Source: Dehalococcoidia bacterium | Lineage (GTDB): Bacteria; Chloroflexota; Dehalococcoidia; Lucifugimonadales; UBA3495 | Reading direction: 5' to 3' | NCBI GenBank assembly: GCA_030740155.1 | Contig: JASLXV010000040.1 | Span: 1-55,616, forward strand | Length of the DNA stretch: 55,616 nt | Shown: piece after piece, positions 13,722 to 55,616 of the stretch | How the letters are laid out: each line of letters starts with the position of its first letter | Position numbering within the stretch: position 1 is the stretch's first letter | The notes under the pieces: generated by a model | Told to the model about the DNA's origin: nothing | What the model saw: the letters and a program-made list of their open reading frames with translations, nothing else | Databases searched by the model: none | Position numbers and translations under genes: made by a program

Positions 13722-15944
13722 ATGACTACAGGCACCGATCTCCTCGATGGACTGAACCCCGCCCAGAAAGAAGCCGTCCAGACCACCGAAGGCCCCCTGC
13801 TGATCGTGGCCGGGCCGGGCAGCGGCAAAACCCGGGTAATCACCCACCGCATCGCTTACCTGGTGCGGGTCTGCGGTGTCAGCCCCTACCGTATCGCGGC
13901 GGTAACCTTCACCAACAAAGCGGCCCGGGCGATGAAGGACCGCCTGCATCGATTGGTGGGCCCCGGCGGTGACGGGCTCAGCGTGGGCACCTTTCACGCA
14001 TTTTGCGCCCAAATGCTCCGCCGGGACGGCGCCTACTTGGGCATCTCGCCCAGTTACAGCATCTACGACGCCGAAGATCAGCTTTCGGTTATCAAGCAGT
14101 CGATGGAACTGGCCGAACTCGACCCCAAAAGGTATCCTCCTCAGGCGGTCCGGAGCGTCATCTCCCGGGCCAAGAGTATCCTCCTTGACTCCCAAGGACT
14201 CGCCCGGCGTAGCCAAGACTACTTCGAGGAGTGTTGCGCCCGGGTCTACCATTACTACGAAGAGCTACTGACCCGGAACAACGGCCTCGACTTCGACGAC
14301 CTGCTCATGCGGGCGGTCCAGTTGCTCCAAAACCACCAGGAGGTGCGGGAAAACTACCAGCGCCGTTACCTCCACCTGATGGTGGACGAGTTCCAGGACA
14401 CCAACGTGGCCCAATACCAGCTGGCCCGGCTGCTGGCTGGTGAGCATCGGAACATCTGCGTGGTGGGCGATCCCGACCAGTCCATCTACTCCTGGCGCAG
14501 CGCCGACATCCGCAACATCCTCAGCTTTCAGCAGGACTACCCCGACGCCATCACCATCGCCCTGGAGCAGAACTACCGCTCGACTAGCACCATTCTGGAC
14601 GCGGCCAAGCACTTGATCTCGGCCAACGGGATGCGGCTGCATAAAGACCTGTTCACCGATAATCAGCAAGGGGTGCCGGTGGACGTGCAGGAGGCCTACG
14701 ACGAGAACGAAGAGGCCTCCCGGGTCGTCGGCGAGGTGATCCGCCTGGTCCGCGAAGAGAAGTTTCAGCCTGGCGACTGCGCGGTCATGTACCGGGTCAA
14801 TGCCCAGTCCCGCGCCCTTGAGGAGGCCTGTCTCCAGCGGGGGATGAAGTACCGGCTGGTGGGCGGCGTCCGTTTCTACCACCGGCGTGAGGTCAAGGAC
14901 CTGATAACCTACCTTCGCGTGCTCTACAACCCCGCGGATGAGGTCAGCCTGGCCCGGGTGACCGGGGTGCCGCCTCGCGGCATCGGCGCCAAGACGCTGC
15001 AGACCCTGTCCCACTGGTCGCAGCGGGAAGGCATCTCCCTGTTCGCCGCCATGCAGAGGGTTGCCGCACCCCGGCCGGCGGGGGAGCCGCCCCCCGTCTC
15101 CATGACGCCTCGGGCCGTCAACGCCATCACCGGCTTCGTCACCTTGATCGAAGGCCTGGTAACCCAGACCACTAAACTCCCGATAGTGGACCTCATCGAC
15201 CGGGTCCTGGAGGATAGCGGTCTGCGCCGGTTCATCCAGAACGGCGAAGACCGGTCCGACGAGCGCTGGGAGAACATCCAGGAGTTTCGAAGGACCGCCC
15301 AGGAACTCAACGCCGAAACACCACCCGACGGCCTGGGCAGCCTCCTGGAGCGGGTCTCCCTCGTAGCCGACGTGGACAGCTATGAAGAATCCGAAGAATC
15401 GATGACGCTGATTACCCTGCATCAGGCCAAAGGGCTGGAGTTCCCGGTGGTGTTCATCGTCGGGATGGAGGAAGGGCTTCTGCCCCACAGCCGGTCGATG
15501 GACAACGAGCAGCAGCTTGAGGAGGAGCGCCGCCTGTGCTACGTGGGCATCACCCGCGCCGAGCGTCGCCTCTACCTGCTGCGAGCTTTCCGCCGGGGAT
15601 TCATGGGCGGCAGGCCCACCATCGCTTCCCGGTTCCTGCGCGACATTCCCGAGTACCTGCTGGCCGCAGGCCGGGCGCCGGCCGCCCCCGCCTCGACCCC
15701 GGCGCCGAGACGGTCTGCCTGGAGTGATTGGGGATCGGAATCCGCCGCTCCGCCCGCCACCGCACCGGCTCGGCTCAGGCTTCAGGTCGGCGATCTGGTC
15801 CGCCATACCGCCTTCGGCGAAGGGGTGGTTATGGGCTGTGACCTGGTGGCGGGTGACTACGAAATCACCGTGGAGTTCAGCGACGGCGTCGGCGTGAAAC
15901 GGCTACTGCTCAGCTTTGCCCCCCTGGAAAAGATTGAGGGGTAG
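13722..15944 (+). CDS. pcrA: PcrA/UvrD DNA helicase
   Basis: AGPGSGKT, DEFQDTN, VGDPDQSIY, TLHQAKGLEF, EEERRLCYVGITRA and a C-terminal Tudor-like domain. Confidence 0.96.
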   Translation: MTTGTDLLDGLNPAQKEAVQTTEGPLLIVAGPGSGKTRVITHRIAYLVRVCGVSPYRIAAVTFTNKAARAMKDRLHRLVGPGGDGLSVGTFHAFCAQMLRRDGAYLGISPSYSIYDAEDQLSVIKQSMELAELDPKRYPPQAVRSVISRAKSILLDSQGLARRSQDYFEECCARVYHYYEELLTRNNGLDFDDLLMRAVQLLQNHQEVRENYQRRYLHLMVDEFQDTNVAQYQLARLLAGEHRNICVVGDPDQSIYSWRSADIRNILSFQQDYPDAITIALEQNYRSTSTILDAAKHLISANGMRLHKDLFTDNQQGVPVDVQEAYDENEEASRVVGEVIRLVREEKFQPGDCAVMYRVNAQSRALEEACLQRGMKYRLVGGVRFYHRREVKDLITYLRVLYNPADEVSLARVTGVPPRGIGAKTLQTLSHWSQREGISLFAAMQRVAAPRPAGEPPPVSMTPRAVNAITGFVTLIEGLVTQTTKLPIVDLIDRVLEDSGLRRFIQNGEDRSDERWENIQEFRRTAQELNAETPPDGLGSLLERVSLVADVDSYEESEESMTLITLHQAKGLEFPVVFIVGMEEGLLPHSRSMDNEQQLEEERRLCYVGITRAERRLYLLRAFRRGFMGGRPTIASRFLRDIPEYLLAAGRAPAAPASTPAPRRSAWSDWGSESAAPPATAPARLRLQVGDLVRHTAFGEGVVMGCDLVAGDYEITVEFSDGVGVKRLLLSFAPLEKIEG

Positions 15945-33021: not shown

Positions 33022-35607
33022 CTAGCTTAACCAGAATGTGGAGCCGGAGTCCCCTTTCTGGACCTCGATGGTGACCGGGAACATCTCCTTCAAATCCTCC
33101 AGGTGGGTGATGACGATGATCTTTTCGAAGTCGCTCTGGATCGCGCCGATCACATCCAGGACCCGCTCCCGACCGGCCGTGTCCTGGGTGCCGAACCCCT
33201 CGTCGATAAACAGGGTGGGCATGGGCGCGCCCATCCGTTGGGCCAGCACCTTGGACAGCGCGATGCGCAGGGCCAAGTTGACGCGGAAGGCCTCGCCGCC
33301 GCTGTACATCTCGTAGCTGCGGGGGCCCAGCTCGTCGCTCACCTGAATCTCCAGGGTCTCGATGGGGTCGCCGCGCCCGGTGCGCCGTTCCCGCTGGGTC
33401 TCGAGCTTCACCTGCATCCGGTTGTCCGTCATGCGTCCCAGCAGCCCGTTGGCCTCCTCCTCCAGCCGGGGGACCACCGTCTCGATGAGCATGGCCTGGA
33501 CACCCTGGCGGCCGAAGGCGGTGACCAGCTCCTGGTAGATGCCCTGGTCTTCTTGCGAGCCGGACAGGCGGGCCGAGATGCCGGCCATCTCCAGTTCGAG
33601 ACCTTCCAGCCGCTCCACCTGGCCCCGCAGGTAACCCCGGCGGTCGATGGCGTGCTGTCTTTGCCCCTCCAACTCTTTCTGAGCTGCCTCGGCCTCCTTA
33701 CGTCTGGCCTCCCACTGGGGCAGCGCGGCTGTTGCCGCTTCGTCGCTTCGGTGTTGCTCTTGAAGCTGCTCTGCCTCGCTCTTTCGACGCCGCAGCATCT
33801 CCTCGGTCCCGGTGACCGACGCCTGCTCTTGGGGCAGGTTGGTTTCCGCATCCGAGAGTTGGCGGAGTTTTGCGGCATAGGGCTCCAGCTCCTGAATCTG
33901 CGTGTAGGTCTGCCGGCGAGCCGCTTCGTCGTAGCCGAGGGTGTTGATTCGGAGGTCCAGCGCCGCGAGCCGGCCCTGCTCATCGGCGGCGAAATCCCCG
34001 GAGGCCAGGGATGCCGAGGTGGTAGATAGCTGAGTCTTGGCCTGGTCCAACTCCTCCCGGGCCGCCCGCGACTCTTGGATGGCCCGCTCCAGGTCGTTGA
34101 TCTTGACCCCGGCTTCCCGTTGAGCCTGGGCCAAGGCCCGTTCCCGGCCGGGCAGGTCCCGCTCCAGGGCGGCGCGCTCGGCCTCAAGCTCTCGCAGCTT
34201 GGAGGCGTTCTGGCGGTACAGATCGCGCTTGGCTTCGATGTCTACTCGGTAGGTTTCCGACAGGCGTCCGCAGCCGTCTTCACCCAGGGGAGACTGGCAC
34301 AGAGGGCACATCGCATCCTGGTGGCCGGTGCGTTGAAGCAACTCCAGCTTGGCGCGAAGCTCCCTCCCTTCCGCCTCGTAACGCTCGGCGACGCTCTGGG
34401 CCTCACCGGCGCGGGTGGCCAGGGTTTGCTGGTCATCCCGACGGGTGCGAAGAGCCTGTTCTTCCACTTCCAGCGCCGGCAGCCGGAGCCGGGTCTTATC
34501 CAGCTCTTTGACCAGGTCCGCTTCCGCCCGCGCCTTATCGGGCAGCTCCACCTCCACTCGGCGCCGAAGCTGTTCCCCCTGGGCTTCCAGGCGGGCGCGG
34601 GCGCCGTCGATGGCCCTCGTCAGAGTTTGCCGGGCCTCAACGAGCGTATCGAAGGCCTGGCGGGCCTCTTCCAGGGCAATGAAGCGGCGCCGGGCCTCGT
34701 CCAGCCGGACGGCCCCCTGCCGGACTGAATCCGCCTGTAGAAGCAGGTCCTGATACTGGTCGACCCGGGCCCGGCCGGCCGCCACGGCGGATTCGAGGTG
34801 GACTGCCTCCCGGCGGATGCCCTCCATCTGCCGTTGCAGCTCGTCCAGCTGAGCACCTTTTCGTTCGAGATCGGCCACCGTCCGCACCAGCTCCTCCACT
34901 TCGCGGCGGCGCTCCTCCAGTTGCGGGTCGACCTGCTGCAAACGTAACTCGATCCCGGCCAGCTCTTCGGAGGGGTCCCCAATCTCCTCGACCTGGCGGC
35001 GCATCTGGCCCAAGGCCCCTTCCGTCTCGGCGGAGGCGTTCCGGCTCTCGTCCAGCCACTCCCTGGCGCGGGCCTGCAGCCGGTCGTAGGCGGCCAACCC
35101 GAGGATCTTGGCCAGCACTGCCTTGCGGTCCGCGGGGGTCTTGTTGCTGAACTCGTCGGCCCGCCCTTGAAGCAGGAAGGCGGAGTTGATGAACGTGTCG
35201 TAGTCCATGCCGACGATCTGGTCGATCCGGGCCTGGGTCTCCCGGATCTGATTGCCGGTGACGGGCTTGGATTCACCGGCGCTCAGGACCTGAAGCTGCA
35301 GGTCGGTGACCCCCTGGCGGCGCCGGCCCCCGCCCCGGGCGTGGGCCCGCACGGCGCGGTATGGGGTGTCCCGGGCCTGGAACTCCAACTCGACGCGGCA
35401 CTCGTCGGCGCCGTAGGAGATCAGGTCGTCGTGGGTCTTGCCCCGGGCCCGGCCCCACAGGCACCAGGTGATGGCATCGAGCAAAGCCGATTTGCCGTGT
35501 CCGTTGGGACCGCAGAGGCAGGCCACGTGAATCCCGGTGAAGTCGAGGCTCGGTACGTCCTCCCGGTAGCAGAGGAAGTTCTTCAAACTCAGGCGCAGGG
35601 GTATCAT
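33022..35607 (-). CDS. sbcC: SbcC/Rad50 SMC-family ATPase
   Basis: GPNGHGKS, coiled coils, CPLC zinc hook, YSGGE and FIDEGFG. Confidence 0.92.
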   Translation of the reverse strand: MIPLRLSLKNFLCYREDVPSLDFTGIHVACLCGPNGHGKSALLDAITWCLWGRARGKTHDDLISYGADECRVELEFQARDTPYRAVRAHARGGGRRRQGVTDLQLQVLSAGESKPVTGNQIRETQARIDQIVGMDYDTFINSAFLLQGRADEFSNKTPADRKAVLAKILGLAAYDRLQARAREWLDESRNASAETEGALGQMRRQVEEIGDPSEELAGIELRLQQVDPQLEERRREVEELVRTVADLERKGAQLDELQRQMEGIRREAVHLESAVAAGRARVDQYQDLLLQADSVRQGAVRLDEARRRFIALEEARQAFDTLVEARQTLTRAIDGARARLEAQGEQLRRRVEVELPDKARAEADLVKELDKTRLRLPALEVEEQALRTRRDDQQTLATRAGEAQSVAERYEAEGRELRAKLELLQRTGHQDAMCPLCQSPLGEDGCGRLSETYRVDIEAKRDLYRQNASKLRELEAERAALERDLPGRERALAQAQREAGVKINDLERAIQESRAAREELDQAKTQLSTTSASLASGDFAADEQGRLAALDLRINTLGYDEAARRQTYTQIQELEPYAAKLRQLSDAETNLPQEQASVTGTEEMLRRRKSEAEQLQEQHRSDEAATAALPQWEARRKEAEAAQKELEGQRQHAIDRRGYLRGQVERLEGLELEMAGISARLSGSQEDQGIYQELVTAFGRQGVQAMLIETVVPRLEEEANGLLGRMTDNRMQVKLETQRERRTGRGDPIETLEIQVSDELGPRSYEMYSGGEAFRVNLALRIALSKVLAQRMGAPMPTLFIDEGFGTQDTAGRERVLDVIGAIQSDFEKIIVITHLEDLKEMFPVTIEVQKGDSGSTFWLS

Positions 35608-42228: not shown

Positions 42229-43080
42229 CTACAACCCGAGGAGGCGGGCGGCGTTGCCCCAGAGGATGGCCTCCTGGGCCGCCGAATCCAGGCCCGACTC
42301 CTCCACCTGCCGCATCATCCGCCGGTGTTCAATAAGCGGATAGTCCGTGGCGAATAGGACCTTGTCCGCGCCGACCAGACCGGCCACGGTGGCGACAACC
42401 CGGGGCTGGTACAGGAAGGGCGACGCGGCCATGTCGAAGTAGACGTTCCGGATAACCTCCGGTACCTCCGGCATCATCGCGTAGAAGGGAAGTCCGCCTC
42501 CCCAATGGGCGCAGATGATCGGATTTTCCGGGAAGTTCTCGATGAAACGGTAGAGCTTGCCGGGCGTGGTCCGGCCCTTTCCGGGATACTGGTGGCCCGC
42601 CGGCTCCGAAGAGTGCACCAGGACGGGCAGGCCAAGCCTCCGGGCCGCATCCATAAGGGGAGCCAGGCCGGGCCTATCGGTGATGTCAAAGCCCTGGGTG
42701 TCCGGGTGCAGCTCGCCGACCCCCCGCAGTCCGGCCACGGCGCAACGCTCCAATTCAGCCGCGACCCCGTCTCCCCAAGCCGGGTTGACCGAGCAGAAGC
42801 CGCTCAGCCGGTCCGGGAACCGGGCCACCGATTCGGCGATGTAGTCGTTGACTTCCTCGGCCAGCGTCCGGTCGCACCAACCCATTCCCATGACCACGGC
42901 TCGGGAGACCCGGGCCCGGTCCATGGCGTCGATCAACGCTTCGGCGGTGGCCATGGTTGCGCCCGCTTCAGGGAAGAGGGTGGCAAAGGTTGCATCGCGC
43001 GCCAGCAGTTCGGCGCGCCGGTGCGCAAAGCCGGGCGGAAGAATGTGGCAATGGCTGTCGATTACCTTTTCGTTTATCAT
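42229..43080 (-). CDS. Amidohydrolase_2 family metal-dependent hydrolase
   Basis: DSHCH, GELHP, CAHWGGG and LFATDYP; ATG 43080 after GGGAG. Confidence 0.9.
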   Translation of the reverse strand: MINEKVIDSHCHILPPGFAHRRAELLARDATFATLFPEAGATMATAEALIDAMDRARVSRAVVMGMGWCDRTLAEEVNDYIAESVARFPDRLSGFCSVNPAWGDGVAAELERCAVAGLRGVGELHPDTQGFDITDRPGLAPLMDAARRLGLPVLVHSSEPAGHQYPGKGRTTPGKLYRFIENFPENPIICAHWGGGLPFYAMMPEVPEVIRNVYFDMAASPFLYQPRVVATVAGLVGADKVLFATDYPLIEHRRMMRQVEESGLDSAAQEAILWGNAARLLGL

Positions 43081-43366
43081 GGGATCTCCCACAAGATTAT
43101 AATAGATGTGTCGTTCGCCGTCCGCCAGTGGGTGTTCTTGACATCCGGCAAGAGCAGGCTGGAATTTGCCCGCCCTCGAATGAGTGGACCGGTGGACCTC
43201 TAGATTTCGAAAAGGGGTATTGGGTTTGGGAGCAACCACCATAGGCAGCAACAGGAGAGCGGGTCAGATAATCCCTCGTCCCACGAGGGCTCGGCGCGGC
43301 ATCCAGGGACCGGAGGCATTGGCACGGTTCCTGGGGCGCAACCGGGCCTAGCCCGGAATCCCTGGC

Positions 43367-43927
43367 GTGGTCAAGCAGCCTGCTGGCAAAGCCGGTCTCT
43401 TGCTGGGCGATGTCGCGCCCGATTTCACCTTGCCAACGGCCGACGGCCGGTTCCTGTCCCTTCAGGACTTTCGAGGCGGCAAGGTGCTCCTGGTGTTCCT
43501 TCGCCACTACGCTTGACTGCCTTGACGGGATCACCTGTCGCAGTTGCGGCGGCACCACCCTGAGATCGAAGCGCGCAATGGCGCCGTACTGGCGGTTTCA
43601 TTCGAGCCTCGGGACCGGCTCTTTCAGTTGTCCCGCCAGATGGGGTTGCCCTTCCCCGTGTTGTCCGATCCGGAGCGGGACGTATACCGGGCCTACCGGC
43701 TGGGAAGAAGGAGCCTGAGACAGGTGTTCGGCTTGGGGACCATCTGGACCTACATCAAGCTTGTGGGCCGGGGACGGCGGTATCGATTCCAGCGGAGCGA
43801 CCTGCGGCAAGGGGGCGGTGACTTTGTCGTCGATGAGCAGGGCGTCGTCCGGTTTGAGCACCGGGGCCCCGCACCCCACGACCGCCCGACGATGGAGAAG
43901 TTGCTGGAAATTCTGGATACGATCTGA
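43367..43927 (+). CDS. Peroxiredoxin-like (AhpC/TSA, SelL-type) selenoprotein with a UxxU motif
   Basis: Single frame GDVAPDFTLP...KVLLVFLRHYA-TGA-LP-TGA-RDHLSQL...LSDPERDVYRAY...QGGGDFVVD...DRP. TGAs at 43514 and 43523 occupy the CxxC positions. The GTG 43367 start is tentative. Confidence 0.85.
43535..43552 (+). promoter_or_regulatory. Putative bacterial SECIS hairpin
   Basis: Stem CUGUCGC/GCGGCGG with loop AGUU. The loop is 16 and 25 nt downstream of the two UGA codons. Confidence 0.6.
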
Positions 43928-44029
43928 GGCAGTATTTGCCCCTGTTCCGATTCCTCGGGCGCCGGCCGCCAGGTTCCGGCGATAGCGGCCGTGGCAAGAT
44001 TGCGCTAGACTGGGGCGGGGGTATCGGGT

Positions 44030-45304
44030 ATGGCACGCTTGAGATTCGTACACGCCGCCGATCTGCATCTGGACAGTCCCTTTACCGGCCTGCGAACGGT
44101 TGAACCCGCCATCGCCGGCGCCTTGCAAGAGGCGACGTTCGACGCCTTCAGCAACATCATCGAGTTGTGCGTCTCGGAGCGGGTCGACGCCCTACTAATA
44201 GCCGGCGACATTTTCGATGGGGCGGACCGGAGCCTCAGAGCCCAACTGAAATTCGTTGACGGATTGAACCGCCTTAGCAATGCCGGCATCAGATCGTTCG
44301 TCTGCCACGGCAATCACGACCCGCTCAACGGATGGGAGGCACGGCTTGCTTTCCCGGAGGGGTCCCACCGGTTCGCTGCCGAGGTGGAAGGGTTTCCCGT
44401 TTTCGCGGATGATCCGGGTCGATCTATGGTCTACGGAATCAGCTACCCACGGCGGGAGGTCCGGGAGAATCTGGTGCCGCGATTCGGCGGCGTGGAGCGC
44501 GGGCCGTTCAATATAGCCCTGCTCCACGCCAACGTGGACAGCGACCCGGCCCACGAGGCCTACGCCCCCTGTAGCCTGGGCGATCTGGAGCGGACGGCCG
44601 CTATAGACTACTGGGCACTGGGTCACGTACACACCCGCCGGGTCCTCCGCGAGACCGGCCCCTCGATCGTGTACCCCGGCAATCCCCAGGGCCGGCATCC
44701 CAACGAGCGCGGCCCCCGCGGCGTGTACCTCGTCGAGGTGAGCGATTCCGGGCAGGTGCATCTCGACTTTCGCCCCGTCGACGTGGTCCGCTGGGCGAGA
44801 CTGGAACTTGACATAAGTGGACTGGAAGCCGAGCAATCGCTCTTTGACCGGCTGGAGCAGGAGCTTGCCACCCGCCGGGACCAAGCCGATGGCCGGAGCA
44901 CGCTCTTCAGGCTGGTGTTGGGCGGCCGGGGCCCTCTTCATCATTCGCTGATCCGCCCAGGGTTTGTCGACGATCTGCTGGAGAGGATCAACGAAACCGG
45001 GTCTCAGGAGCGTCCCTTTTTCTGGTGCGAGCGAATACAGGTATCCACGGCCTCTCTCATCGATCGTGAACAAGAACGCCATCGAGGCGACTTCGTGGGA
45101 GATCTGGTCCGGCTTCGTGATGAGTGGCAGAAGACTCCGAATTGCCTCGGCGAAATCCGTGAAAACCTGCAGGAGCTATACGGAAGGGGCAACGCGGGCC
45201 GTTTCTTGCGGGAGCATTTGCCTACCGATGAGGAATTGCTGGAGTTGATGGCCGGCGCCGAGGCGGCTTGCCTCGCGGAGTTGTTGGAGGAGGACAACGC
45301 GTGA
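44030..45304 (+). CDS. Mre11/SbcD-like metallophosphoesterase (YhaO-like)
   Basis: ADLHLDSPF, AGDIFD, GNHD, DYWALGHVH and YPGNPQGR. Confidence 0.93.
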   Translation: MARLRFVHAADLHLDSPFTGLRTVEPAIAGALQEATFDAFSNIIELCVSERVDALLIAGDIFDGADRSLRAQLKFVDGLNRLSNAGIRSFVCHGNHDPLNGWEARLAFPEGSHRFAAEVEGFPVFADDPGRSMVYGISYPRREVRENLVPRFGGVERGPFNIALLHANVDSDPAHEAYAPCSLGDLERTAAIDYWALGHVHTRRVLRETGPSIVYPGNPQGRHPNERGPRGVYLVEVSDSGQVHLDFRPVDVVRWARLELDISGLEAEQSLFDRLEQELATRRDQADGRSTLFRLVLGGRGPLHHSLIRPGFVDDLLERINETGSQERPFFWCERIQVSTASLIDREQERHRGDFVGDLVRLRDEWQKTPNCLGEIRENLQELYGRGNAGRFLREHLPTDEELLELMAGAEAACLAELLEEDNA

Positions 45305-48300
45305 GGGTCGAAGATCTGCATATAGAGGGATTCGGTCCTTTCGCCGCCAAACAGGTCGGGCCCTTTACGGGGTCCATCGTCGTTATCCACGGAGTCAACG
45401 AGGCCGGAAAGAGCACCCTTCTCGCGTTCATTCGGATGGTCCTCTTTGGGTTCCCCCGATTACCGGATAGGCATTACCCTCCACTGGCCGGCGGTCAGCA
45501 TGGCGGCCGCTTGACGCTAGTGGATAGCAGCGGGCGCCGGTTCATCGTTGAAAGATTCCGTGGTACCCATGGCGGACCGGTCAGCATCAAGACCGGGGAT
45601 GGCGCCCCGGCTGACGAGGCGAACCTTCGCCGGCTTCTCAGCGATACCTCATCGGATGTCTTCAAGAATGTGTTCGCTTTTAGCCTCGACGAACTCCAGG
45701 AGGACAAATCACTACAGAATGCCGATGTAGATAACCAGATATACAGCGCCGGGATGGGAGCAGCCAGATTGCCGGGGGCGCTCAATGCAATCAGAAACAA
45801 GAAGAACGAAATCTTCCGCAGGCAAGGAAGGAGAAACGCCATAGCAGGGTTGATCGCAGAACTGGAAGTGGTCGGCAGCCGTCTGGATGAGGCGCAGGGG
45901 AACGCCGCCAAGTATGGCAGTCTCGTCGCCCGGCTGTCGGAGATCGGCCAGGAAATAGAGTCCGGGGGATCCGATCGCGCCAAGTTGCAGCAGCAATCCG
46001 GGGAAGTGGCCCGCTTGCAGGAGGGCTGGGACGACTGGGTTGCCCTCATTGAGGTTGACGATCAATTGAACGAGCTTCCCAGCTTCGACGGTTTCCCGGA
46101 AAATGCCGTCGGCCGGCTTGAAGCCGCCCAGGAGCGGGCGGGCAACGGGAAACGGGATTTGGAAGAGGACGCCGAAAAACTCAAACTGGCCGAGAAATCA
46201 GCCGAGGAATCGATCGCCGATGAAAGCCTGCTGGAGCATCGGGAAAACGTCGAGCGTATTCGCCGAGGGCGGGCCAGCTTCGACGCATCGGTGCGGGACC
46301 TGCCCGACCGCAAGGGAGAGCTACAAAGTTTGGAAGCCGCCCTCGGTGAACGGCTCCGGGACCTCGGCCCTGATTGGGTTGAGGAACGCCTCGATTCCTT
46401 TGATACGTCGATAGGCACCCGAGACCACATCGAGGTTTCGCGGCAGACGCTGGCCGGGAGTCATGCCGATCTGCGAGAACGCACCAGCCGTCTGGAACAG
46501 TTTCAGGGCCTCCTGAAGGAACACCGGGAAGTCGAGCTTCGAGCCCGAAACGCGGTCGAAGAGAAGGAAGGCCCGTCCCTCGATGCCGCGGCGGTTGAAC
46601 AAAAACGAACGGCATTGCGGGCCACCCGAACTCGACTGGATGAATACGCCAGGCAACGCCAGCGCCACACGGATTTCCGGGGTCAACTCGAATCCTCCGC
46701 GGGCCCGGCGGAAGTCGGGCGGCAGAGCAGCGGATTGCAAAGGATGGGCTTGCCGCTGCTGCTGGCTCTCGCGGCGGTCGTGCTGATGGCGGCCGGAGCG
46801 TTCCTGGGGCAGGAGGCGTTGATTATCAGCGGTTTCGCGGGCTTCGTGCTGCTCGGCGTAATTGGATACATCCTCATAAGAGGCGAGCGGACACCTTCGG
46901 GCGCTGGTGGCCCGGTCAATCAGGCATTGGCGGGCCTGGTTCGGGATGCCGAGATTGCTGAAACCAAGGCGGAGGCAGAGCTTCAAGAGGCCGCGGCGCC
47001 CCTTGGTCTCATTCTGCCTGACGCCGTTGCCCTGGATGTCGTTGAAGGGGAGTTGGACTCTGTCAGCGAGGCCCTTCGCGCCTGGGAGGCCCTGCGGCAG
47101 CGGCTCGCCGACGCCACCCAGGCGGTGCGGCAGCAACAAGGCCGCGCGGATGACGCGGCTCAAGCGCGGGAATCGGCGCGGGAAGCGCTGGAGGCGGTGC
47201 AGGGGGAATGGCGGACCTGGCTGGTGGACCGTGGCCTAGCCGAGACGCTTACCCCGGAGACGATGGTCGAATTCCGGGGCAGCGTGGAGACGGCGCGGTT
47301 CGCTCTGGGGGAAGTCCGGACCATGCGGAGCCGGATCAAGGCCATCGAAAAGGATATTGACGAGTACAAGGAGTTGATTGTTCCTCTCGCGGGCACCTTT
47401 GGCATACCGATTGGCGGCACACCGATTGAGACCGGGGTGTCCCGCGAGCTTGCCTCGGCGGCGGACGCTCTGATAGCGCGGTACGTTGCCGTGGGTGATT
47501 CAGTAAACCGGCGGGATGTCGCCCGAGAAGAGGCCGAGAATGTCGGTCAACGAGTCCGGCGGCTTGAGAAGCGGCTCGAAGAGTACCAGGAGGTTGTGGT
47601 GAAACTCCTCGGCGCCGGCGGCACCGATGACCCCGAGGAATTCCGGCGACGGGCCGCGCAGCACGACGAACGTCGCGACTTGGAGCGAAAGCGCGGTGGA
47701 TACCAGACAAACCTCCAACGATTGACCGGCCCCGGTGAGCAGTTCGAGCGGTTCAAGGAAGAACTGGCCCAGGCGAGCCCGCAGGCTCTGGAAGAAACCT
47801 CTCGCGAGCTTGCCGAGCAAATCGAAGCAAATGAGGAAATCGGAGACACCTTGTTGCGTGAGCAAGGAGAAAAGAGGACCCTCCTGGGCCAGCTAACCAG
47901 CGAAGCAGAGTCGTCGGCGCTGCGGGTGAAGAGGAACGCGCTCATGGAGGAGCTACGGGAGCAAGCACGGGAGTGGACGAAACTAACCATAGCTGAGGAT
48001 TTACTGCTGCGGACCCGCACGAAATTCGAGGAGGAACGCCAGCCGGGAGTGATTCTGCACGCTCAAAAGTTCTTCGGCGCCATCACCGGCCAGCGGTACC
48101 CCCGGCTTTACGCTCCAATTGGGGAGCAGACCGTTACGGTGATCGACGAGAACGGCGTCAGCAAACAACCTTCGGAACTCAGCCGCGGCACCAGAGAGCA
48201 GCTCTACCTGGCATTGCGCTTCGGCCTGATCCGAGAGTTTGGGGAGCGGAACGAGTGTCTGCCGGTGGTGGTGGACGAGGTGCTGGTGAACTTTGACCCA

Positions 48301-48435
48301 GACCGGGCCCGGCGCGCCGCCGAAGCCTTCGTGGAGCTTTCGAGAACCAACCAGGTCCTGGTGTTCACCTGTCACCCGGAGATGATCGACCTCTTCACCG
48401 GTGTTGCTCCGGACACCCAGGTTATCGAGCTGTAG
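45301..48435 (+). CDS. SMC-like AAA ATPase (YhaN/SbcE-like) with a central two-TM hairpin
   Basis: GVNEAGKST, long coiled coils, LSRGTREQLYLALR, DEVLVNFD and FTCH. GTGA overlap with the upstream gene. Confidence 0.9.
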   Translation: MRVEDLHIEGFGPFAAKQVGPFTGSIVVIHGVNEAGKSTLLAFIRMVLFGFPRLPDRHYPPLAGGQHGGRLTLVDSSGRRFIVERFRGTHGGPVSIKTGDGAPADEANLRRLLSDTSSDVFKNVFAFSLDELQEDKSLQNADVDNQIYSAGMGAARLPGALNAIRNKKNEIFRRQGRRNAIAGLIAELEVVGSRLDEAQGNAAKYGSLVARLSEIGQEIESGGSDRAKLQQQSGEVARLQEGWDDWVALIEVDDQLNELPSFDGFPENAVGRLEAAQERAGNGKRDLEEDAEKLKLAEKSAEESIADESLLEHRENVERIRRGRASFDASVRDLPDRKGELQSLEAALGERLRDLGPDWVEERLDSFDTSIGTRDHIEVSRQTLAGSHADLRERTSRLEQFQGLLKEHREVELRARNAVEEKEGPSLDAAAVEQKRTALRATRTRLDEYARQRQRHTDFRGQLESSAGPAEVGRQSSGLQRMGLPLLLALAAVVLMAAGAFLGQEALIISGFAGFVLLGVIGYILIRGERTPSGAGGPVNQALAGLVRDAEIAETKAEAELQEAAAPLGLILPDAVALDVVEGELDSVSEALRAWEALRQRLADATQAVRQQQGRADDAAQARESAREALEAVQGEWRTWLVDRGLAETLTPETMVEFRGSVETARFALGEVRTMRSRIKAIEKDIDEYKELIVPLAGTFGIPIGGTPIETGVSRELASAADALIARYVAVGDSVNRRDVAREEAENVGQRVRRLEKRLEEYQEVVVKLLGAGGTDDPEEFRRRAAQHDERRDLERKRGGYQTNLQRLTGPGEQFERFKEELAQASPQALEETSRELAEQIEANEEIGDTLLREQGEKRTLLGQLTSEAESSALRVKRNALMEELREQAREWTKLTIAEDLLLRTRTKFEEERQPGVILHAQKFFGAITGQRYPRLYAPIGEQTVTVIDENGVSKQPSELSRGTREQLYLALRFGLIREFGERNECLPVVVDEVLVNFDPDRARRAAEAFVELSRTNQVLVFTCHPEMIDLFTGVAPDTQVIEL

Positions 48436-48610: not shown

Positions 48611-48702
48611 GCTAGCGATCAGTCAGCTTCGCCAGGATGACGGGCGGGAGGCTAGAATGCCGCGCAGTTTCGCCCATGGGAAGCTACTTGCAAGACAGTG
48701 CG

Positions 48703-49008
48703 TTAGTTCTCGCTGCCGTCTTCGGTGAACCCGTCATCGCTGAACACGCCCGTTTCCCGGCCTTGGAACACGTGCACCACGAACCCTTCGCGGTCGATGC
48801 CCACGGCGTCCACCATGTCCTCGTCCACCGTGTCGATTATCTCCTGAATGGCGTCTTGAGTCAGGCTCTCGTCCACCGCGACGGAAAGGTGGACCACTCC
48901 GTTTGCGAAATGGATATCCACCCGCCCCACGGGGCGGTCGTCCTCACGGATGGTATAAGCCTCGGAATAAGGGGTCCGGACCTCGCGCTCGAAGCTAAAG
49001 TCCCCCAC
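48703..49008 (-). CDS. Small acidic hypothetical protein
   Basis: 101-aa ORF with GGAGG RBS, directly downstream of proA. Confidence 0.75.
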   Translation of the reverse strand: MGDFSFEREVRTPYSEAYTIREDDRPVGRVDIHFANGVVHLSVAVDESLTQDAIQEIIDTVDEDMVDAVGIDREGFVVHVFQGRETGVFSDDGFTEDGSEN

Positions 49009-49023
49009 AGCCCACCTCCCGGT

Positions 49024-50322
49024 CTAGTATCTGACCTGGCCGTTGCCCAGGATTACCCACTTGTATGAGGTGAGTTCCCGAAGGCCCATGGGTCCTCTGG
49101 CGTGTAACTTTTGAGTACTGATGCCCACCTCGGCGCCCAGTCCGAACTGCGCGCCGTCGGTGAACCTGGTGCTCGCGTTGACGAACACCGCCGCGGCGTC
49201 CACCTCTTCGAGGAACCGCATCGCCGCCGAATAATCTTCGGTAATGATGGCCTCCGAATGGCCGGAGCCGTAGGTTTCGATATGTTGCAGAGCCTCTTCC
49301 AGAGAGTCTACCACCTTGACGGCCGCGGTCAACGACAGGAACTCCTGTCCCCAGTCGTCTTCGACGGCGGGCAGCACCTTGCCCATCGGCAATTCTCCCT
49401 CACCGAGGGGGCTCGGCCCCAGGATGCTCAGGGCCCGGTGGTCGCAGTGCAGCTCCACCCCGGCCGCCGCCAGCTCCCGGGCGATGCGGGGCAGACACCG
49501 GGGCGCAACGTCGGAGTGGACCAGCACCGTGTCCAGGGCGTTGCACACTGTGGGGCGCTGGACCTTGGCGTTGAAGATTATATCCGCCGCCATCCCCACG
49601 TCTGCACCCCGATCCACGTAGGTATGGCACACGCCGATGCCCCCGGTGACGGCGGGCATGGCGGCGTTGTTCGCCACGAAACGGACCAACTCCGCGCCGC
49701 CCCGGGGCACCAACAGGTCGATATGCTCTTTCATTCGCAGCATGGCGTCCACCAGGGCCCGGTCCGGGTTGTCGATGAATTGGACGGCCTCCGGCGGCAC
49801 CCCAGCCTCGGCGATGGCCTCGCGCACCAGTTTGACCAGGGCGGTGTTGGAGTGGAGGCTCTCCTTGCCGCCCCGCAGCAGGCAGGCGTTGCCCGATTTG
49901 AGGCACAGGACGGCGATGTCGATGGTGACGTTGGGACGGCTCTCGTAGATGCTGCCCACCACGCCCAGGGGGACTCGGCGTTTGCCCACCCGCAGGCCGT
50001 TGGGCAAGGTGGTCATGTCCATGGTCTCGCCTATTGGGTCGGGCAAGGCCGCCACGGCGCGCACGTCACGGGCGATGTCCTGGAGCCGCTCCGGAGTCAG
50101 GAGCAGCCGGTCCAGCATCGCCTCGTCGAGGCCGTTACTTCGGGCAGCCTCGTGGTCCCGCCGGTTGGCCGCCAGAACGGGAGACTGGCCGGTTTCAAGC
50201 GCCTCCGCGATGTTGAGCAGCGCCCGGTCCTTGATCCGCGTGGACAGACGGGCCACCTGCCGGCTGGCCGCCCGGGCCGCCCGGCCCTTCGCCACAAGCG
50301 CGTCAACGGTCTCGATGGTCAT
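49024..50322 (-). CDS. proA: Gamma-glutamyl phosphate reductase
   Basis: IYESRPNVT, LRGGKE, CNALDT, NASTRFTDG and ISTQKLHARGP. Confidence 0.97.
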   Translation of the reverse strand: MTIETVDALVAKGRAARAASRQVARLSTRIKDRALLNIAEALETGQSPVLAANRRDHEAARSNGLDEAMLDRLLLTPERLQDIARDVRAVAALPDPIGETMDMTTLPNGLRVGKRRVPLGVVGSIYESRPNVTIDIAVLCLKSGNACLLRGGKESLHSNTALVKLVREAIAEAGVPPEAVQFIDNPDRALVDAMLRMKEHIDLLVPRGGAELVRFVANNAAMPAVTGGIGVCHTYVDRGADVGMAADIIFNAKVQRPTVCNALDTVLVHSDVAPRCLPRIARELAAAGVELHCDHRALSILGPSPLGEGELPMGKVLPAVEDDWGQEFLSLTAAVKVVDSLEEALQHIETYGSGHSEAIITEDYSAAMRFLEEVDAAAVFVNASTRFTDGAQFGLGAEVGISTQKLHARGPMGLRELTSYKWVILGNGQVRY

Positions 50323-52289: not shown

Positions 52290-55200
52290 ATGTCTTTGAA
52301 TGGTGTCCTTTCCGTAATCAGCGGTCACCCGGAGTACCTGCGCCATATGGCGACGGCCCCCACTCCGGAGGCGCCGCCCCGCGTCGCGGTGCGCCAGGGA
52401 GCGCGTCCGGGGTATATCGCGGCCCTGTGGCGTCACCAGCCGGGACCGTTACTGGTCATCACCCCTCGCTCGGAGGATGCCCGGCGGCTCCACGACCAGC
52501 TCCTCACCTACTTGGGAGAGGGCGAGCAGGTTTACCTGCTTCCGGAGCCGGAGGTGCTTCCCTTCGAACGGCTCTCCGTGGATGCCAACACCAGCAACCA
52601 GCGGCTGGCCGCTCTGGCAGCCCTGGCTTCGTCATCGGCAAACCGCGACAGTGAGGACTCCTCACACCCGCTGGTCGTCGCCTCCGTGGGCGCCGTGCTG
52701 ATCAAAACATTGCCCTTCGAGGTCATGGTTGGCCCCGGCGCCGGGGGCGGAGAGAGCGGTCTCTGGCGGGTCGGCGTGGGCGAGAAGGTGCGGCTCAACC
52801 AGCTCTTGGCCCACTGGGTGGACCTGGGCTACCGCAACGAGCCGGTAGTGGAAGCGCCCGGCTGCTTCAGCCATCGGGGCGGCATCATCGACGTCTATCC
52901 GGCCCATGCCGACCTGCCCTATCGCATCGAACTCTGGGACGACGAAATCGACACTATCCGGCAATTCGATCCCTACAGCCAGCGCTCGGTTCGCGGCGTG
53001 GAGGAGGTGCGCCTCATCCCCGCCAGGGAGCAACTACCGAACCTGACCAGCCCGGTGCGGGTTCGAGAGCTTGTCTCGGGGATCGACTTCACCCGCTGCA
53101 ATAAGGACATCCAGGAACGGATGGAAGAGGAGATCGCGGCCCTGTTCACCGGGCCGAACATCGAGACCATCTCCTTCTACAACGGCCTGCTGAATTCGGC
53201 TAACCTGCTCGAATACCTGCCGAAGCATGGGCGGATAGTCCTGGAGCGGGCCAGCCAGATCGAAGCCGAAGCCCTGGAGCTACAGGAGCGGTTCGACCGG
53301 ATGCGGTCCAACCGGGAGGATCGCGGCGAGCTTCCCGCCGGCTTTCCGACCCCATACCTGCCCTGGCCGGAGTTCACCGCGGAGCTGGAGCAGCGTCCCC
53401 GGTTGCTGCTCCAGACCTGGGTCAATGACGAGGACGACCGCATCTTCCAGCCGGTGGCCCCCTACTACGGGCGGTTGGAGGAACTGGCCGGCGATGTCCT
53501 GCGTCACCAACAGGAAGGCCGGGCCGTGGTGGCGGTGACGCAGCACGCCCGCCGCCTGGCCGAAATTCTGGAGCAGGCCGGCGCCGGGGTTACCCTATCC
53601 ACGACGCTAGAAGAACCGCCCCAACCCGGCCGCGTCTACCTGGTGTCCGGGTCGCTGCGGGAAGGCTGGACCATCGACGCCCCAACATCCGGCGCTGCCA
53701 GGGACAACGGCGATGGTCCCCATTCAGAAAGTGGGTTGGAAAACCGGGAAGGTGCGCCCTGCTCCCTCACTTTGTTGACCGACGCCGAGCTGTTCGGCAC
53801 GGTCAAAGAGCGGCGCTACCGCCGGGTCCAGAGGGCGGAGCACGGCCCGGCGGTGGTCCTCTCCGACCTGGTCCCCGGCAGCTACGTGGTCCATATCGAC
53901 CACGGCGTGGCCCGTTTCGCCGGGACCACCAAGATCGGAGAGGACGGCGAGGAAAAGGAATACCTGGTCCTGGAATACGCCGAGCAGGACAAGCTCTACG
54001 TGCCCACCGACAACCTGGACCGGGTAAGCGCCTACGTTGGGGCCATGGACCGCCCGCCCAACCTGACCCGCCTCAGCGCCGCCGATTGGGCCAGGGTCAA
54101 GGAACGGGTCAAAAGGGCCACCAGAGAGATGGCCATGGAGCTGCTGCAGCTCCACGCCTCTCGCCAGGCCGCCCAGGGCCACGAATTCGGCCCGGACACG
54201 GTCTGGCAGCAGGAGCTGGAAGACTCGTTTCCCTTCGAGGAAACCCCCGACCAGGCCAACGCCATCAACGAAGTGAAAGCGGATATGGAGCGGACCAAGC
54301 CCATGGACCGGCTGATCTGCGGAGACGTCGGTTACGGCAAGACCGAGGTCGCGCTGCGGGCCGCCTTCAAGACGGTGAACGACGGTATGCAGGTCGGGCT
54401 CCTGGTCCCTACCACCGTGCTGGCCCAACAGCACTACGCCACCTTCAGCGAGCGCCTGAGCCCCTTTCCGGTGCGGGTCGAGGTCCTCAGCCGGTTCCGC
54501 ACCCGCAAGGAGCAGCAAGAGGTTATCCAAGGGCTGAAAGACGGCACGGTCGACATCGTAGTCGGCACCCACCGCCTGCTGCAGAAGGACATCCATTTCA
54601 AGAATCTGGGCCTGGCGGTGGTCGATGAAGAGCACCGGTTCGGGGTCTCCCATAAGGAGCGGCTGAAGAGGCTCCGGCGGGAGGTGGATGTCCTGACCCT
54701 GAGCGCCACTCCAATTCCCCGCACCCTGAACCAGGCCCTCTCCGGCATCCGGGACCTGAGCACCATGGACACTCCCCCTGAGGCGCGCCTGCCGGTGAAG
54801 ACCTTTGTCTCCGAGTACAGCGAGGAGGTCATCAAGGAGGCCATCCTCCGGGAGCTGGAACGCAACGGCCAGGTCTTCTTCCTGCACAACCGGGTCAGGA
54901 CCATCCAGCAGAAGGCGGCTGAGATTCTTGAGCTGGCGCCCCAGGCCCGTATCCTGGTTGCTCACGGCCAGATGGTCGAGGGGGACCTGGAAGACGTGAT
55001 GATGGCTTTTTCCAGAGGCGAGGCCGACGTGCTGATGTGCACGACCATCATCGAGTCCGGACTGGACATGCCCAACGTGAACACGTTGATCGTGGACCGG
55101 GCCGACCGGTTCGGCCTCTCCCAGCTGTACCAACTCCGGGGAAGAGTGGGCCGGGGCGACCACCGGGCTTACGCTTACCTGCTGATCCCCCGGGGGCGGC

Positions 55201-55616
55201 GAATTACCGAGGCGGCGGAACGGAGGGTCCAGGCCATCCTGGAAGCGTCCGATCTGGGCTCCGGCTTCCGCATAGCCATGCGTGACCTGGAGATACGCGG
55301 CGCGGGCAACCTGCTGGGCGCGGCGCAGAGCGGCCACATCCAGGAGGTCGGGCTGGACCTCTACAGCCAGCTGCTCCAGGAGGCGGTCAGGGAGCTGACT
55401 GAGGAGCAGGGAGAAGGGGCCTTAGCCCCCAAACCGGCGGCCGTCGAGCTGCCCCGGGTGGACCTGCCCGTTCAGGCCCGTATTCCGGAGAGCTACATCT
55501 CGCACCTGCCTACGCGTCTGGCCACCTACCAGCGGCTGGCCCGTACCACCGAGCGGCGGGATCTCCCCCAGCTTCGGGACGAGCTGCGGGACCGGTTCGG
55601 GCCCCTGCCCCAGGAG
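52290..55616 (+). CDS. mfd: Transcription-repair coupling factor (runs off the window end)
   Basis: Reading frame from ATG 52290 with VVHIDHGV, CGDVGYGKTEVA, DEEHRFG, SATPIPRT, QLRGRVGR and DLEIRGAGNLLG. Confidence 0.96.
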   Translation, partial: MSLNGVLSVISGHPEYLRHMATAPTPEAPPRVAVRQGARPGYIAALWRHQPGPLLVITPRSEDARRLHDQLLTYLGEGEQVYLLPEPEVLPFERLSVDANTSNQRLAALAALASSSANRDSEDSSHPLVVASVGAVLIKTLPFEVMVGPGAGGGESGLWRVGVGEKVRLNQLLAHWVDLGYRNEPVVEAPGCFSHRGGIIDVYPAHADLPYRIELWDDEIDTIRQFDPYSQRSVRGVEEVRLIPAREQLPNLTSPVRVRELVSGIDFTRCNKDIQERMEEEIAALFTGPNIETISFYNGLLNSANLLEYLPKHGRIVLERASQIEAEALELQERFDRMRSNREDRGELPAGFPTPYLPWPEFTAELEQRPRLLLQTWVNDEDDRIFQPVAPYYGRLEELAGDVLRHQQEGRAVVAVTQHARRLAEILEQAGAGVTLSTTLEEPPQPGRVYLVSGSLREGWTIDAPTSGAARDNGDGPHSESGLENREGAPCSLTLLTDAELFGTVKERRYRRVQRAEHGPAVVLSDLVPGSYVVHIDHGVARFAGTTKIGEDGEEKEYLVLEYAEQDKLYVPTDNLDRVSAYVGAMDRPPNLTRLSAADWARVKERVKRATREMAMELLQLHASRQAAQGHEFGPDTVWQQELEDSFPFEETPDQANAINEVKADMERTKPMDRLICGDVGYGKTEVALRAAFKTVNDGMQVGLLVPTTVLAQQHYATFSERLSPFPVRVEVLSRFRTRKEQQEVIQGLKDGTVDIVVGTHRLLQKDIHFKNLGLAVVDEEHRFGVSHKERLKRLRREVDVLTLSATPIPRTLNQALSGIRDLSTMDTPPEARLPVKTFVSEYSEEVIKEAILRELERNGQVFFLHNRVRTIQQKAAEILELAPQARILVAHGQMVEGDLEDVMMAFSRGEADVLMCTTIIESGLDMPNVNTLIVDRADRFGLSQLYQLRGRVGRGDHRAYAYLLIPRGRRITEAAERRVQAILEASDLGSGFRIAMRDLEIRGAGNLLGAAQSGHIQEVGLDLYSQLLQEAVRELTEEQGEGALAPKPAAVELPRVDLPVQARIPESYISHLPTRLATYQRLARTTERRDLPQLRDELRDRFGPLPQE

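Follow-up and report, generated by a model that had tools for sequence, protein, structure and literature searches.

A Dehalococcoidia gene with two in-frame UGA codons predicted to encode a SelL-related redox protein with selenocysteine at both positions of its motif

Introduction

Selenoprotein L (SelL), in the 2007 account of Shchedrina et al., reportedly possesses an in-frame bacterial SECIS placed to serve both of its UGA codons. SelL is a peroxiredoxin (Prx)-like protein in which two selenocysteine (Sec) residues are located two residues apart, depend on a single SECIS and form a diselenide; it is found in fish, invertebrates and marine bacteria (PMC2397514, PMC3316567). Prokaryotic selenoprotein catalogues list a 'Prx-like thiol:disulfide oxidoreductase' of PF00578 that carries one or two Sec residues in UxxC or UxxU motifs (PMC13188914, PMC9312934). 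UxxC proteins with the same RHLG-U flank were present in the 2008 GOS dataset, as was the UxxU 'Prx-like 2', a very distant family resembling pfam04592 (PMC2398784). The PrxL.1 protein of Lokiarchaeota has a Prx-like fold with both redox-box Cys residues replaced by Sec and no other Cys, and its one-Sec and two-Sec forms coexist (PMC4989117). In human PRXL2B (prostaglandin F (PGF) synthase, FAM213B; PDB 9us9), a CxxC motif reduces an endoperoxide, with Arg40 and Arg41 located beside Cys44 (PMC12938796). Two Dehalococcoidia are among the ten most selenoprotein-rich organisms of BSepDB (PMC13326102).

We analysed a 55,616-nucleotide stretch of DNA of a Dehalococcoidia bacterium (contig JASLXV010000040.1 of assembly GCA_030740155.1; hereafter, the window), in which a gene located at 43367..43927 of the forward strand is predicted to encode a SelL-related protein with two Sec residues. 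UxxU SelL/Prx-like selenoproteins have already been catalogued, in bacteria as well, and the protein is not of a new kind. Judging by the description of SelL, the two share the UxxU motif in a thioredoxin (Trx)/Prx-like fold and an aquatic host; the single predicted hairpin of our gene may serve both UGA codons as the SECIS of SelL does, and the diselenide that was shown for SelL is a predicted one here. There is no difference in kind from the catalogued Prx-like thiol:disulfide oxidoreductase and from the NF040769 family: the Pfam domain and the motif are the same and the cut-off is passed. The replacement of both redox-box Cys residues by Sec is common to our protein and the GOS 'Prx-like 2', but our protein has no pfam04592 match. 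It also resembles PrxL.1 in having no other Cys, whereas PrxL.1 is archaeal and relies on a eukaryote-like SECIS (PMC4989117). With human PRXL2B it shares basic residues at positions -4/-3, a near full-length profile match and a less ordered insert; the human enzyme, however, has CxxC instead of UxxU and is only ~20% identical, so that its lipid substrate PGH2 cannot be assumed for the bacterial protein. True peroxiredoxins (AhpE, BCP/PrxQ) are the closest structurally, but their catalytic Pro, Thr and Arg are replaced. Our literature searches found no paper on this SAR202-type clade, which BSepDB may nevertheless contain.

Results

The reading frame and its annotation

The region 43367..43927 (+) is a single frame of 186 codons that starts from GTG, has no frameshift and contains two TGA codons as its only internal stops; the terminal stop, at 43925-43927, is TGA too. 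The translation bears out the initial annotation, which described a continuous 186-codon frame with TGA codons at 43514 and 43523 (residues 50 and 53). The motif region reads FLRHYA-U-LP-U-RDHL. Locus and database comparisons suggest that UGA codon 50 (43514..43516, +) would encode the first Sec, which takes the N-terminal, nucleophilic place in the CxxC-type motif, and UGA codon 53 (43523..43525, +) would encode the second Sec, at the resolving position, which the locus comparison shows to be exchangeable with Cys. The assignment of the coding sequence to a 186-aa SelL-related thioredoxin/peroxiredoxin-like selenoprotein is based on the translation, on matches to PF00578, PF13911 and NF040769 and on a structure model. 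The GTG at 43367 is the probable start: a same-genus orthologue begins with a nearly identical VVKQP.GKAG, and N-terminal length in other orthologues points to it as well, although the sequence shows no clear ribosome-binding site.

In a mechanical list of open reading frames only 43544-43927 is called, i.e., 127 aa from a TTG (43544..43546, +) which gene callers take as a start and which is probably not a real one. This TTG lies inside the loop/stem of the SECIS-type hairpin described below: the invariant loop contains it, which explains its conservation, and a start at this place also explains why 97 of the 98 best database matches (E <= 2.3e-31), covering <=70% of the query, are the same truncated piece. 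The list and the database fragments thus agree with the earlier claim that standard annotation would report only the 127-aa C-terminal piece. Taken alone, the fragment scores 87.3 bits against NF040769, below the cut-off of 120, and in the structure model it is devoid of the redox motif and of the first strands of the fold.

The TGA codons are not an assembly error, since a contig from sequencing run X18, which is not marked as a possible source, has 0 differences to positions 43232-44100. A contig from run X5, a possible source, matches the whole stretch. The runs that contain window DNA are labelled marine or seawater metagenome, and all but one of the near-complete holders are possible sources. 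Two contigs from RNA libraries are short, have a depth of ~2 and leave the TGA codons outside; transcription is not shown by them.

Motif codons in related loci and proteins

Both motif codons were obtained from 30 of the 31 related loci examined (the window and three repeated records count among them; 26 of the 72-nt stretches are distinct). Codon 50 is TGA in 30/30, while codon 53 is TGA in 22, TGC/TGT in 7 and GGG in one, and such conservation means that the TGA codons are not there by chance. The one locus left over, L077, contains a frameshift; by eye, its motif codons are TGA/TGT. In a wider set of 55 Dehalococcoidia-centred loci, a count from which L058, L059, L061, L073 and L077 were left out, the motif is UxxU in 22, UxxC in 23, CxxC in 8, UxxG in one and UxxS in one; the first position is therefore U in 47/55 and C in 8/55, and CxxU does not occur among them. 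TGA53 is retained in 22 of these 55 loci, whose proteins are 45-75% identical or, in a more distant case (L087), 39%. A quick tree of the 55 loci places three UxxC loci (L030, L063 and L071) inside a mostly UxxU clade and some UxxU loci outside it (L079, L087); it was used only to see UxxC rows lying among UxxU ones and not for the order of events, and a FastTree phylogeny of database proteins, whose deep support is weak, was likewise used for nesting only. One protein inside the clade, P0010, reads SxxC, and locus L074 has a TAA 12 codons past the motif. A full-length match is present in 11 of 61 genomes (the host's own included), and class-wide the family was detected in 34 of the 301 genomes searched. 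Relatives of the protein occur in records titled Dehalococcoidia, Chloroflexota or SAR202, from which, together with the marine labels of the sequencing runs, we infer that the host is of the SAR202 type.

The motif is covered by 103 of the 149 database proteins that we examined; it is CxxC in 91, SxxC in 6, WxxW in 2 and something else in 4; Cys is found at position 50 in 94/103 and at position 53 in 97/103. The initial annotation had predicted Cys or TGA at both sites of the homologues, and this holds in general, the exceptions being the two WxxW proteins of the 103, the six SxxC ones and the four with other residues. The WxxW pair (P0200 and P0204) reads WLPW, keeps the LP and RDH flanks at 38% identity and forms a separate branch of the weakly supported tree; one of the two has a 150-aa N-terminal extension. 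The DNA of a WLPW relative was searched for and not found. Most simply, these proteins may be UxxU genes translated with a table in which TGA means Trp.

Loss of coding conservation upstream of the TGA codons had been named at the outset as an observation that would speak against a two-Sec protein. No such loss is seen: pN/pS is 0.395 for residues 13-49 and 0.400 for residues 64-178 (231 pairs from 22 sequences; values uncorrected and ungapped, with pS near saturation).

Selenocysteine machinery and genetic code of the host

A search of the host genome (assembly 93.7% complete and 7.65% contaminated) found selA (548.6 bits), selB (322.8), selD (376.8) and tRNA-Sec (69.4), each over its curated cut-off; this is the complete set that the initial annotation proposed to look for. 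The four genes sit on contigs other than that of the window, and the GC and tetranucleotide profiles of these contigs agree with those of the bulk genome (r 0.983-0.997). The anticodon of tRNA-Sec is UCA, and the host selD itself carries an in-frame TGA in the context CAG-U-AAK. Among the host genome and 60 relatives, selA is present in 57/61. No selA was found in one TGA-bearing genome, G131, nor in G022, a close relative of the host (67% complete). Both trxB and trxA are present in the host. TGA is a normal stop codon in this genome: it ends 603 of 1594 long open reading frames, and the terminal stop of the orthologues varies between TGA, TAG and TAA at about the same place.

Taken together, the Sec machinery, the codons of the homologues and the equal constraint upstream and downstream support the earlier reading of the gene as one for a two-Sec redox protein and not a pseudogene. 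Sequence comparison makes it almost certain that UGA50 is read as Sec, and it is highly probable that both UGA50 and UGA53 are.

The SECIS-type hairpin

A single in-frame hairpin of the bacterial SECIS type is predicted at 43535..43552 (+) from covariation and synonymous constraint; it has a 7-bp stem and an AGUU loop (43542-43545) located 25 nt after UGA50 and 16 nt after UGA53. In the consensus bSECIS model, the loop has 3-9 nt with a G in its first two positions, the stem has 4-16 bp, the distance from the UGA is 16-37 nt and the MFE is <= -7.5 (PMC13188914). The hairpin agrees with all of these values (AGUU, 7 bp, 25/16 nt, -9.2 kcal/mol, the energy being that of the stem-loop alone calculated with our own script and not with bSECISearch). 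The consensus spacing begins at 16 nt, so UGA53 is as near to the loop as the model allows and its decoding may be poor.

The AGUU loop is invariant in 26 sequences, 96.7% of the stem cells are paired and five of the seven stem pairs covary with two-sided changes, although the structure was derived from the same sequences and the two-sided changes come from few lineages. Neither any of 500 shuffles nor any slid register scores as high as the real stem. RNAalifold recovers six of the seven pairs unaided and finds only one conserved hairpin in the 72-nt alignment, and synonymous divergence is 0.165 in the hairpin vs. 0.650 elsewhere. Single-sequence folding over six subregions gave the hairpin no stability advantage over shuffles (z -0.65 to +0.71), and in two of these six folds its 5' arm was paired instead with the region of the UGAs; only comparison singles it out. 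A comparable hairpin is present at only 37 of 471 TGA ends of long open reading frames in the host genome. Hairpins of -5 kcal/mol or better accompany 46/47 TGA forms vs. 1/8 CxxC forms, and selA is found in 20/21 genomes with a TGA form vs. 2/8 with CxxC, the CxxC controls not being independent because seven of the eight come from one family. An Rfam search of 42900-44200 gave only two sub-threshold chance matches.

As a separate observation, the basal (seventh) pair of the stem is broken in all three in-clade UxxC genes (L030, L063, L071) and in 2 of 20 in-clade UxxU genes; in this small and related sample, the broken pair may matter for decoding of the nearer UGA.

Family, fold and active site

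The readthrough protein scores 88.6 bits against PF00578 (AhpC-TSA) and 49.5 bits against PF13911 (AhpC-TSA_2; gathering score 27). Against NF040769, 'SelL-related redox protein', it scores 146.9 bits (cut-off 120) over positions 2-172 of the 173-position profile, and 131.3 bits when the genome is searched with stops read through; all 85 members of our alignment match this family. In a structure model built from the 85-row alignment with Cys in place of Sec, which gives no chemistry (pLDDT 91.3, pTM 0.86), the motif begins the helix that follows strand 39-44, and the core is followed by an insert of lower order, residues 111-150 (pLDDT 81-85). AhpE and BCP peroxiredoxins match the fold best (AhpE: Z 22.2, rmsd 1.9, 149 residues aligned); for human PGF synthase, Z is 18.1 and rmsd 2.1, with 138 residues aligned. 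Among 52 PDB sequences, PGF synthase (two entries) is the only one whose best stretch spans profile positions 19-179.

Peroxiredoxins are defined by a PxxxT/SxxC peroxidatic motif and a conserved distal catalytic Arg. The former is absent from our protein: FFPLAFTGIC of AhpE aligns with FLRHYAULPU, so that the Pro corresponds to R46 and the Thr to U50. The distal Arg is absent as well, since the Arg of AhpE RGTFVVD aligns with G150, and G, P or S stands there in most rows of the family. With R46, U50 and G150 at the catalytic Pro, Thr and Arg positions the protein is not a peroxiredoxin, and it scores far below the cut-off of Prx family models (46 vs. 140 bits). The designation 'peroxiredoxin-like' given to it earlier is therefore right for the fold but not for the catalytic motif. 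Two other features are conserved in the family: Arg46-His47 (43502..43507, +), at -4/-3 from the first Sec (R in 71/74 and H in 62/74 aligned rows), and a Q-x-G-G-D-F motif, residues 148-153 (43808..43825, +), which occupies the site of the peroxiredoxin catalytic Arg (Q148 in 77/85 and G151 in 75/85 rows). R46/H47 would correspond to Arg40/Arg41 of PRXL2B, as judged from their offset to the motif and not from a printed alignment. With PF13911 over the gathering score, a CxxC-type motif and basic residues at -4/-3, the features of PRXL2/FAM213-like proteins, it looks like a PRXL2/PGF-synthase-type CxxC reductase.

Discussion

Proposed mechanism

The locus very probably holds a functional gene whose predicted product is a SelL-related oxidoreductase of the cytoplasm (PRXL2/AhpC-TSA_2-type) that has Sec at both positions of the redox motif. 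SelD and SelA, whose genes are present in the host, would charge tRNA-Sec, and SelB bound to the single hairpin at 43535-43552 would recode UGA50 (+25) and then UGA53 (+16), such double use being a prediction. The 186-aa product likely adopts a Trx/Prx-like fold in which U50, modelled as Cys, begins the active-site helix. U50 is taken as the nucleophile because Cys was never seen at this site together with Sec at the other; its selenolate would attack an organic hydroperoxide or endoperoxide placed by Arg46/His47 (the most likely substrate) or a protein disulfide. U53 would then resolve the intermediate to an intramolecular diselenide, as suggested by the order of the motif, by PGF synthase and by SelL. 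Finally, the diselenide may be re-reduced by the thioredoxin system of the cell or by another selenoprotein. This is the weakest step of the scheme: a secondary source describes diselenides as hard to reduce, which is a problem for re-reduction (PMC2397514). We consider peroxide reduction somewhat more probable as the main activity than disulfide exchange or selenium handling taken together.

It is possible, though unlikely, that the two-Sec protein does not catalyse the reduction of peroxides or disulfides but rests as a very stable diselenide, buffering selenium or a metal or else working as a sensor whose reduction needs strongly reducing conditions. The redox potentials of diselenides, which are very low, and the fact that a system dedicated to their reduction was only postulated (PMC2397514) would fit such a role, as would the lack of a partner reductase linked to the gene and of the Prx catalytic motif. 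However, UxxC and CxxC versions are as common as UxxU, and position 53 toggles between U and C within one clade, which is what one expects of a resolving residue in a catalytic cycle; besides, the conserved Arg46/His47 have their counterparts in PGF synthase, which is catalytic. We regard it as improbable, and more so than a buffer or sensor, that only UGA50 is decoded efficiently while UGA53 mostly terminates translation, the scarce full-length protein being then the outcome of a selenium-dependent throttle of expression. Such a throttle would agree with the 16 nt between UGA53 and the loop, the smallest distance that the bSECIS model admits, and with the loop distances seen elsewhere (17-19 nt in 16/22 UGSC genes and 20-21 nt in 13/18 Prx-like paralogues), and the 25-nt position, being found in 17/23 UxxC genes too, need not be tuned for the second codon. 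A codon that mostly kills the protein would, however, be expected to revert to TGY, whereas TGA53 is kept in 22/55 loci and the 125 codons downstream of it are constrained like the upstream part.

The two remaining alternatives deny Sec insertion altogether. That the locus is a pseudogene or a split gene, whose real product is the 127-aa C-terminal frame starting from TTG 43544, is very improbable: such fragments do make up 97 of the 98 best database matches, and L074 does have an extra stop, but the fragment lacks the redox motif and first strands and falls below the family cut-off, the part upstream of the TGAs is under the same constraint as the downstream one, the TGAs are common to several genera, and the conservation of the TTG is explained by the invariant SECIS loop. 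We give practically no credence to a genome-wide use of TGA for an ordinary residue (Trp, Gly or Cys), with no Sec-specific recoding, which could account for the 2/103 database relatives that read WLPW. These are distant proteins (38% identity, separate branch), while in the host TGA ends 603/1594 long open reading frames, the terminal stops of orthologues vary between TGA, TAG and TAA, homologues have Cys where the internal TGAs stand, and the genome encodes a tRNA-Sec whose anticodon is UCA. Two-Sec decoding in a catalytically active protein thus remains our preferred reading.

Significance and the spacing of the hairpin

What is new is a SAR202-type clade that toggles between U and C at the second site and so provides a natural series for the study of two-UGA decoding and diselenide turnover. 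Its UxxU and UxxC genes are nearly identical and have the hairpin in common, and CxxC relatives lack it, which makes two questions directly testable: how two UGA codons separated by 9 nt are served by one in-frame bacterial SECIS, and which cellular reductant acts on a natural diselenide. The analysis also corrects a systematic annotation error for a redox family of an abundant marine lineage, a family that is invisible to ordinary surveys because 97 of the 98 closest database entries are devoid of the active site.

The hairpin loop is located 25 nt from the first UGA in 22/22 UxxU and in 17/23 UxxC genes. In Prx-like paralogues of the relatives it lies at 20-21 nt in 13/18, none of these 18 genes being UxxU, and the best hairpins of the host UGSC genes lie at 17-19 nt in 16/22. 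We tentatively suggest, while holding it rather more likely to be wrong than right, that SECIS geometry and not only chemistry decides which bacterial CxxC proteins gain a second Sec and that a routine diselenide cycle accompanies this. If so, a loop placed at 25 nt would already be 16 nt from codon 53, and one TGY-to-TGA change would give a diselenide enzyme with the RNA unchanged; codon 53 would have flipped several times, while the paralogue loops at 20-21 nt would leave only 11-12 nt for a second UGA. A catalytic diselenide cycle would then be routine in SAR202-type bacteria, probably with another of their many selenoproteins as the reductant. A UxxU thioredoxin-fold protein of another subfamily, which bears on this spacing rule, is encoded in a relative (L107:313-849; G055:C31): it reads HMASG-U-GA-U-MKQ, has a lipoprotein-like N-terminus, scores 27.7 bits against NF040769 (below the cut-off), and its loop is predicted, from a single fold, at a different distance.

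Genomic neighbourhood and other selenoprotein genes

A divergent amidohydrolase gene recurs beside the SelL-related gene in 26/30 loci, usually followed by mug/thpR/alkA-like genes, whereas the downstream Mre11-like gene recurs in only 4/30. Other neighbours are transketolase, proA/proB-like and varied genes (24 of the 96 listed open reading frames were scanned). No conserved redox partner adjoins the gene in the 30 loci, and we read the amidohydrolase neighbourhood as inherited gene order and not as a functional link. A promoter scan gave only one sigma-70-like site, at 43074-43103, which lies 263 nt upstream of the SelL-related gene and overlaps the start of the divergent one, and a terminator scan gave two terminator-like sites inside the coding sequence, at chance level; neither is claimed here. 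Three long open reading frames of the window, 14265-15806 (-) of 513 aa, 53724-55337 (-) of 537 aa and 48637-49068 (+) of 143 aa, have no Pfam match at E <= 0.001.

In five relatives, a two-gene transketolase is located directly upstream on the same strand (L060:2141-3969 and L071:2184-3964, both assigned with Pfam, and similarly in L063, L073 and L077). In the window, the SelL-related gene is followed at 44030-48435 (+) by genes for an Mre11/SbcD-like phosphoesterase and a 1055-aa AAA_27 SMC-like partner, and a separate SbcC-like ATPase is encoded 8 kb upstream, at 33022-35607 (-). The window as a whole is rich in genes of nucleic-acid repair (Mre11/SbcD-like, SbcC-like, mug, thpR, alkA-like and fpg). 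In an Anaerolineaceae record, the UxxC relative (L076:2369-3061) is preceded on its strand, at a distance of ~1 kb, by a GrdB-family gene.

On other contigs, the host genome matches the UGSC selenoprotein family NF041046 at 28 places (for example, C69:5123-5557 and C94:8593-9027); every match has a single in-frame TGA, and six are over the cut-off. A second candidate Prx-like selenoprotein of the host (C74:61219-61515 (-), L056) reads RGFF-U-GLC and has a lipoprotein-like N-terminus and its own hairpin. A scan of the host genome for TGA codons with coding sequence on both sides yielded 39 UxxC-type and three CxxU-type candidates.
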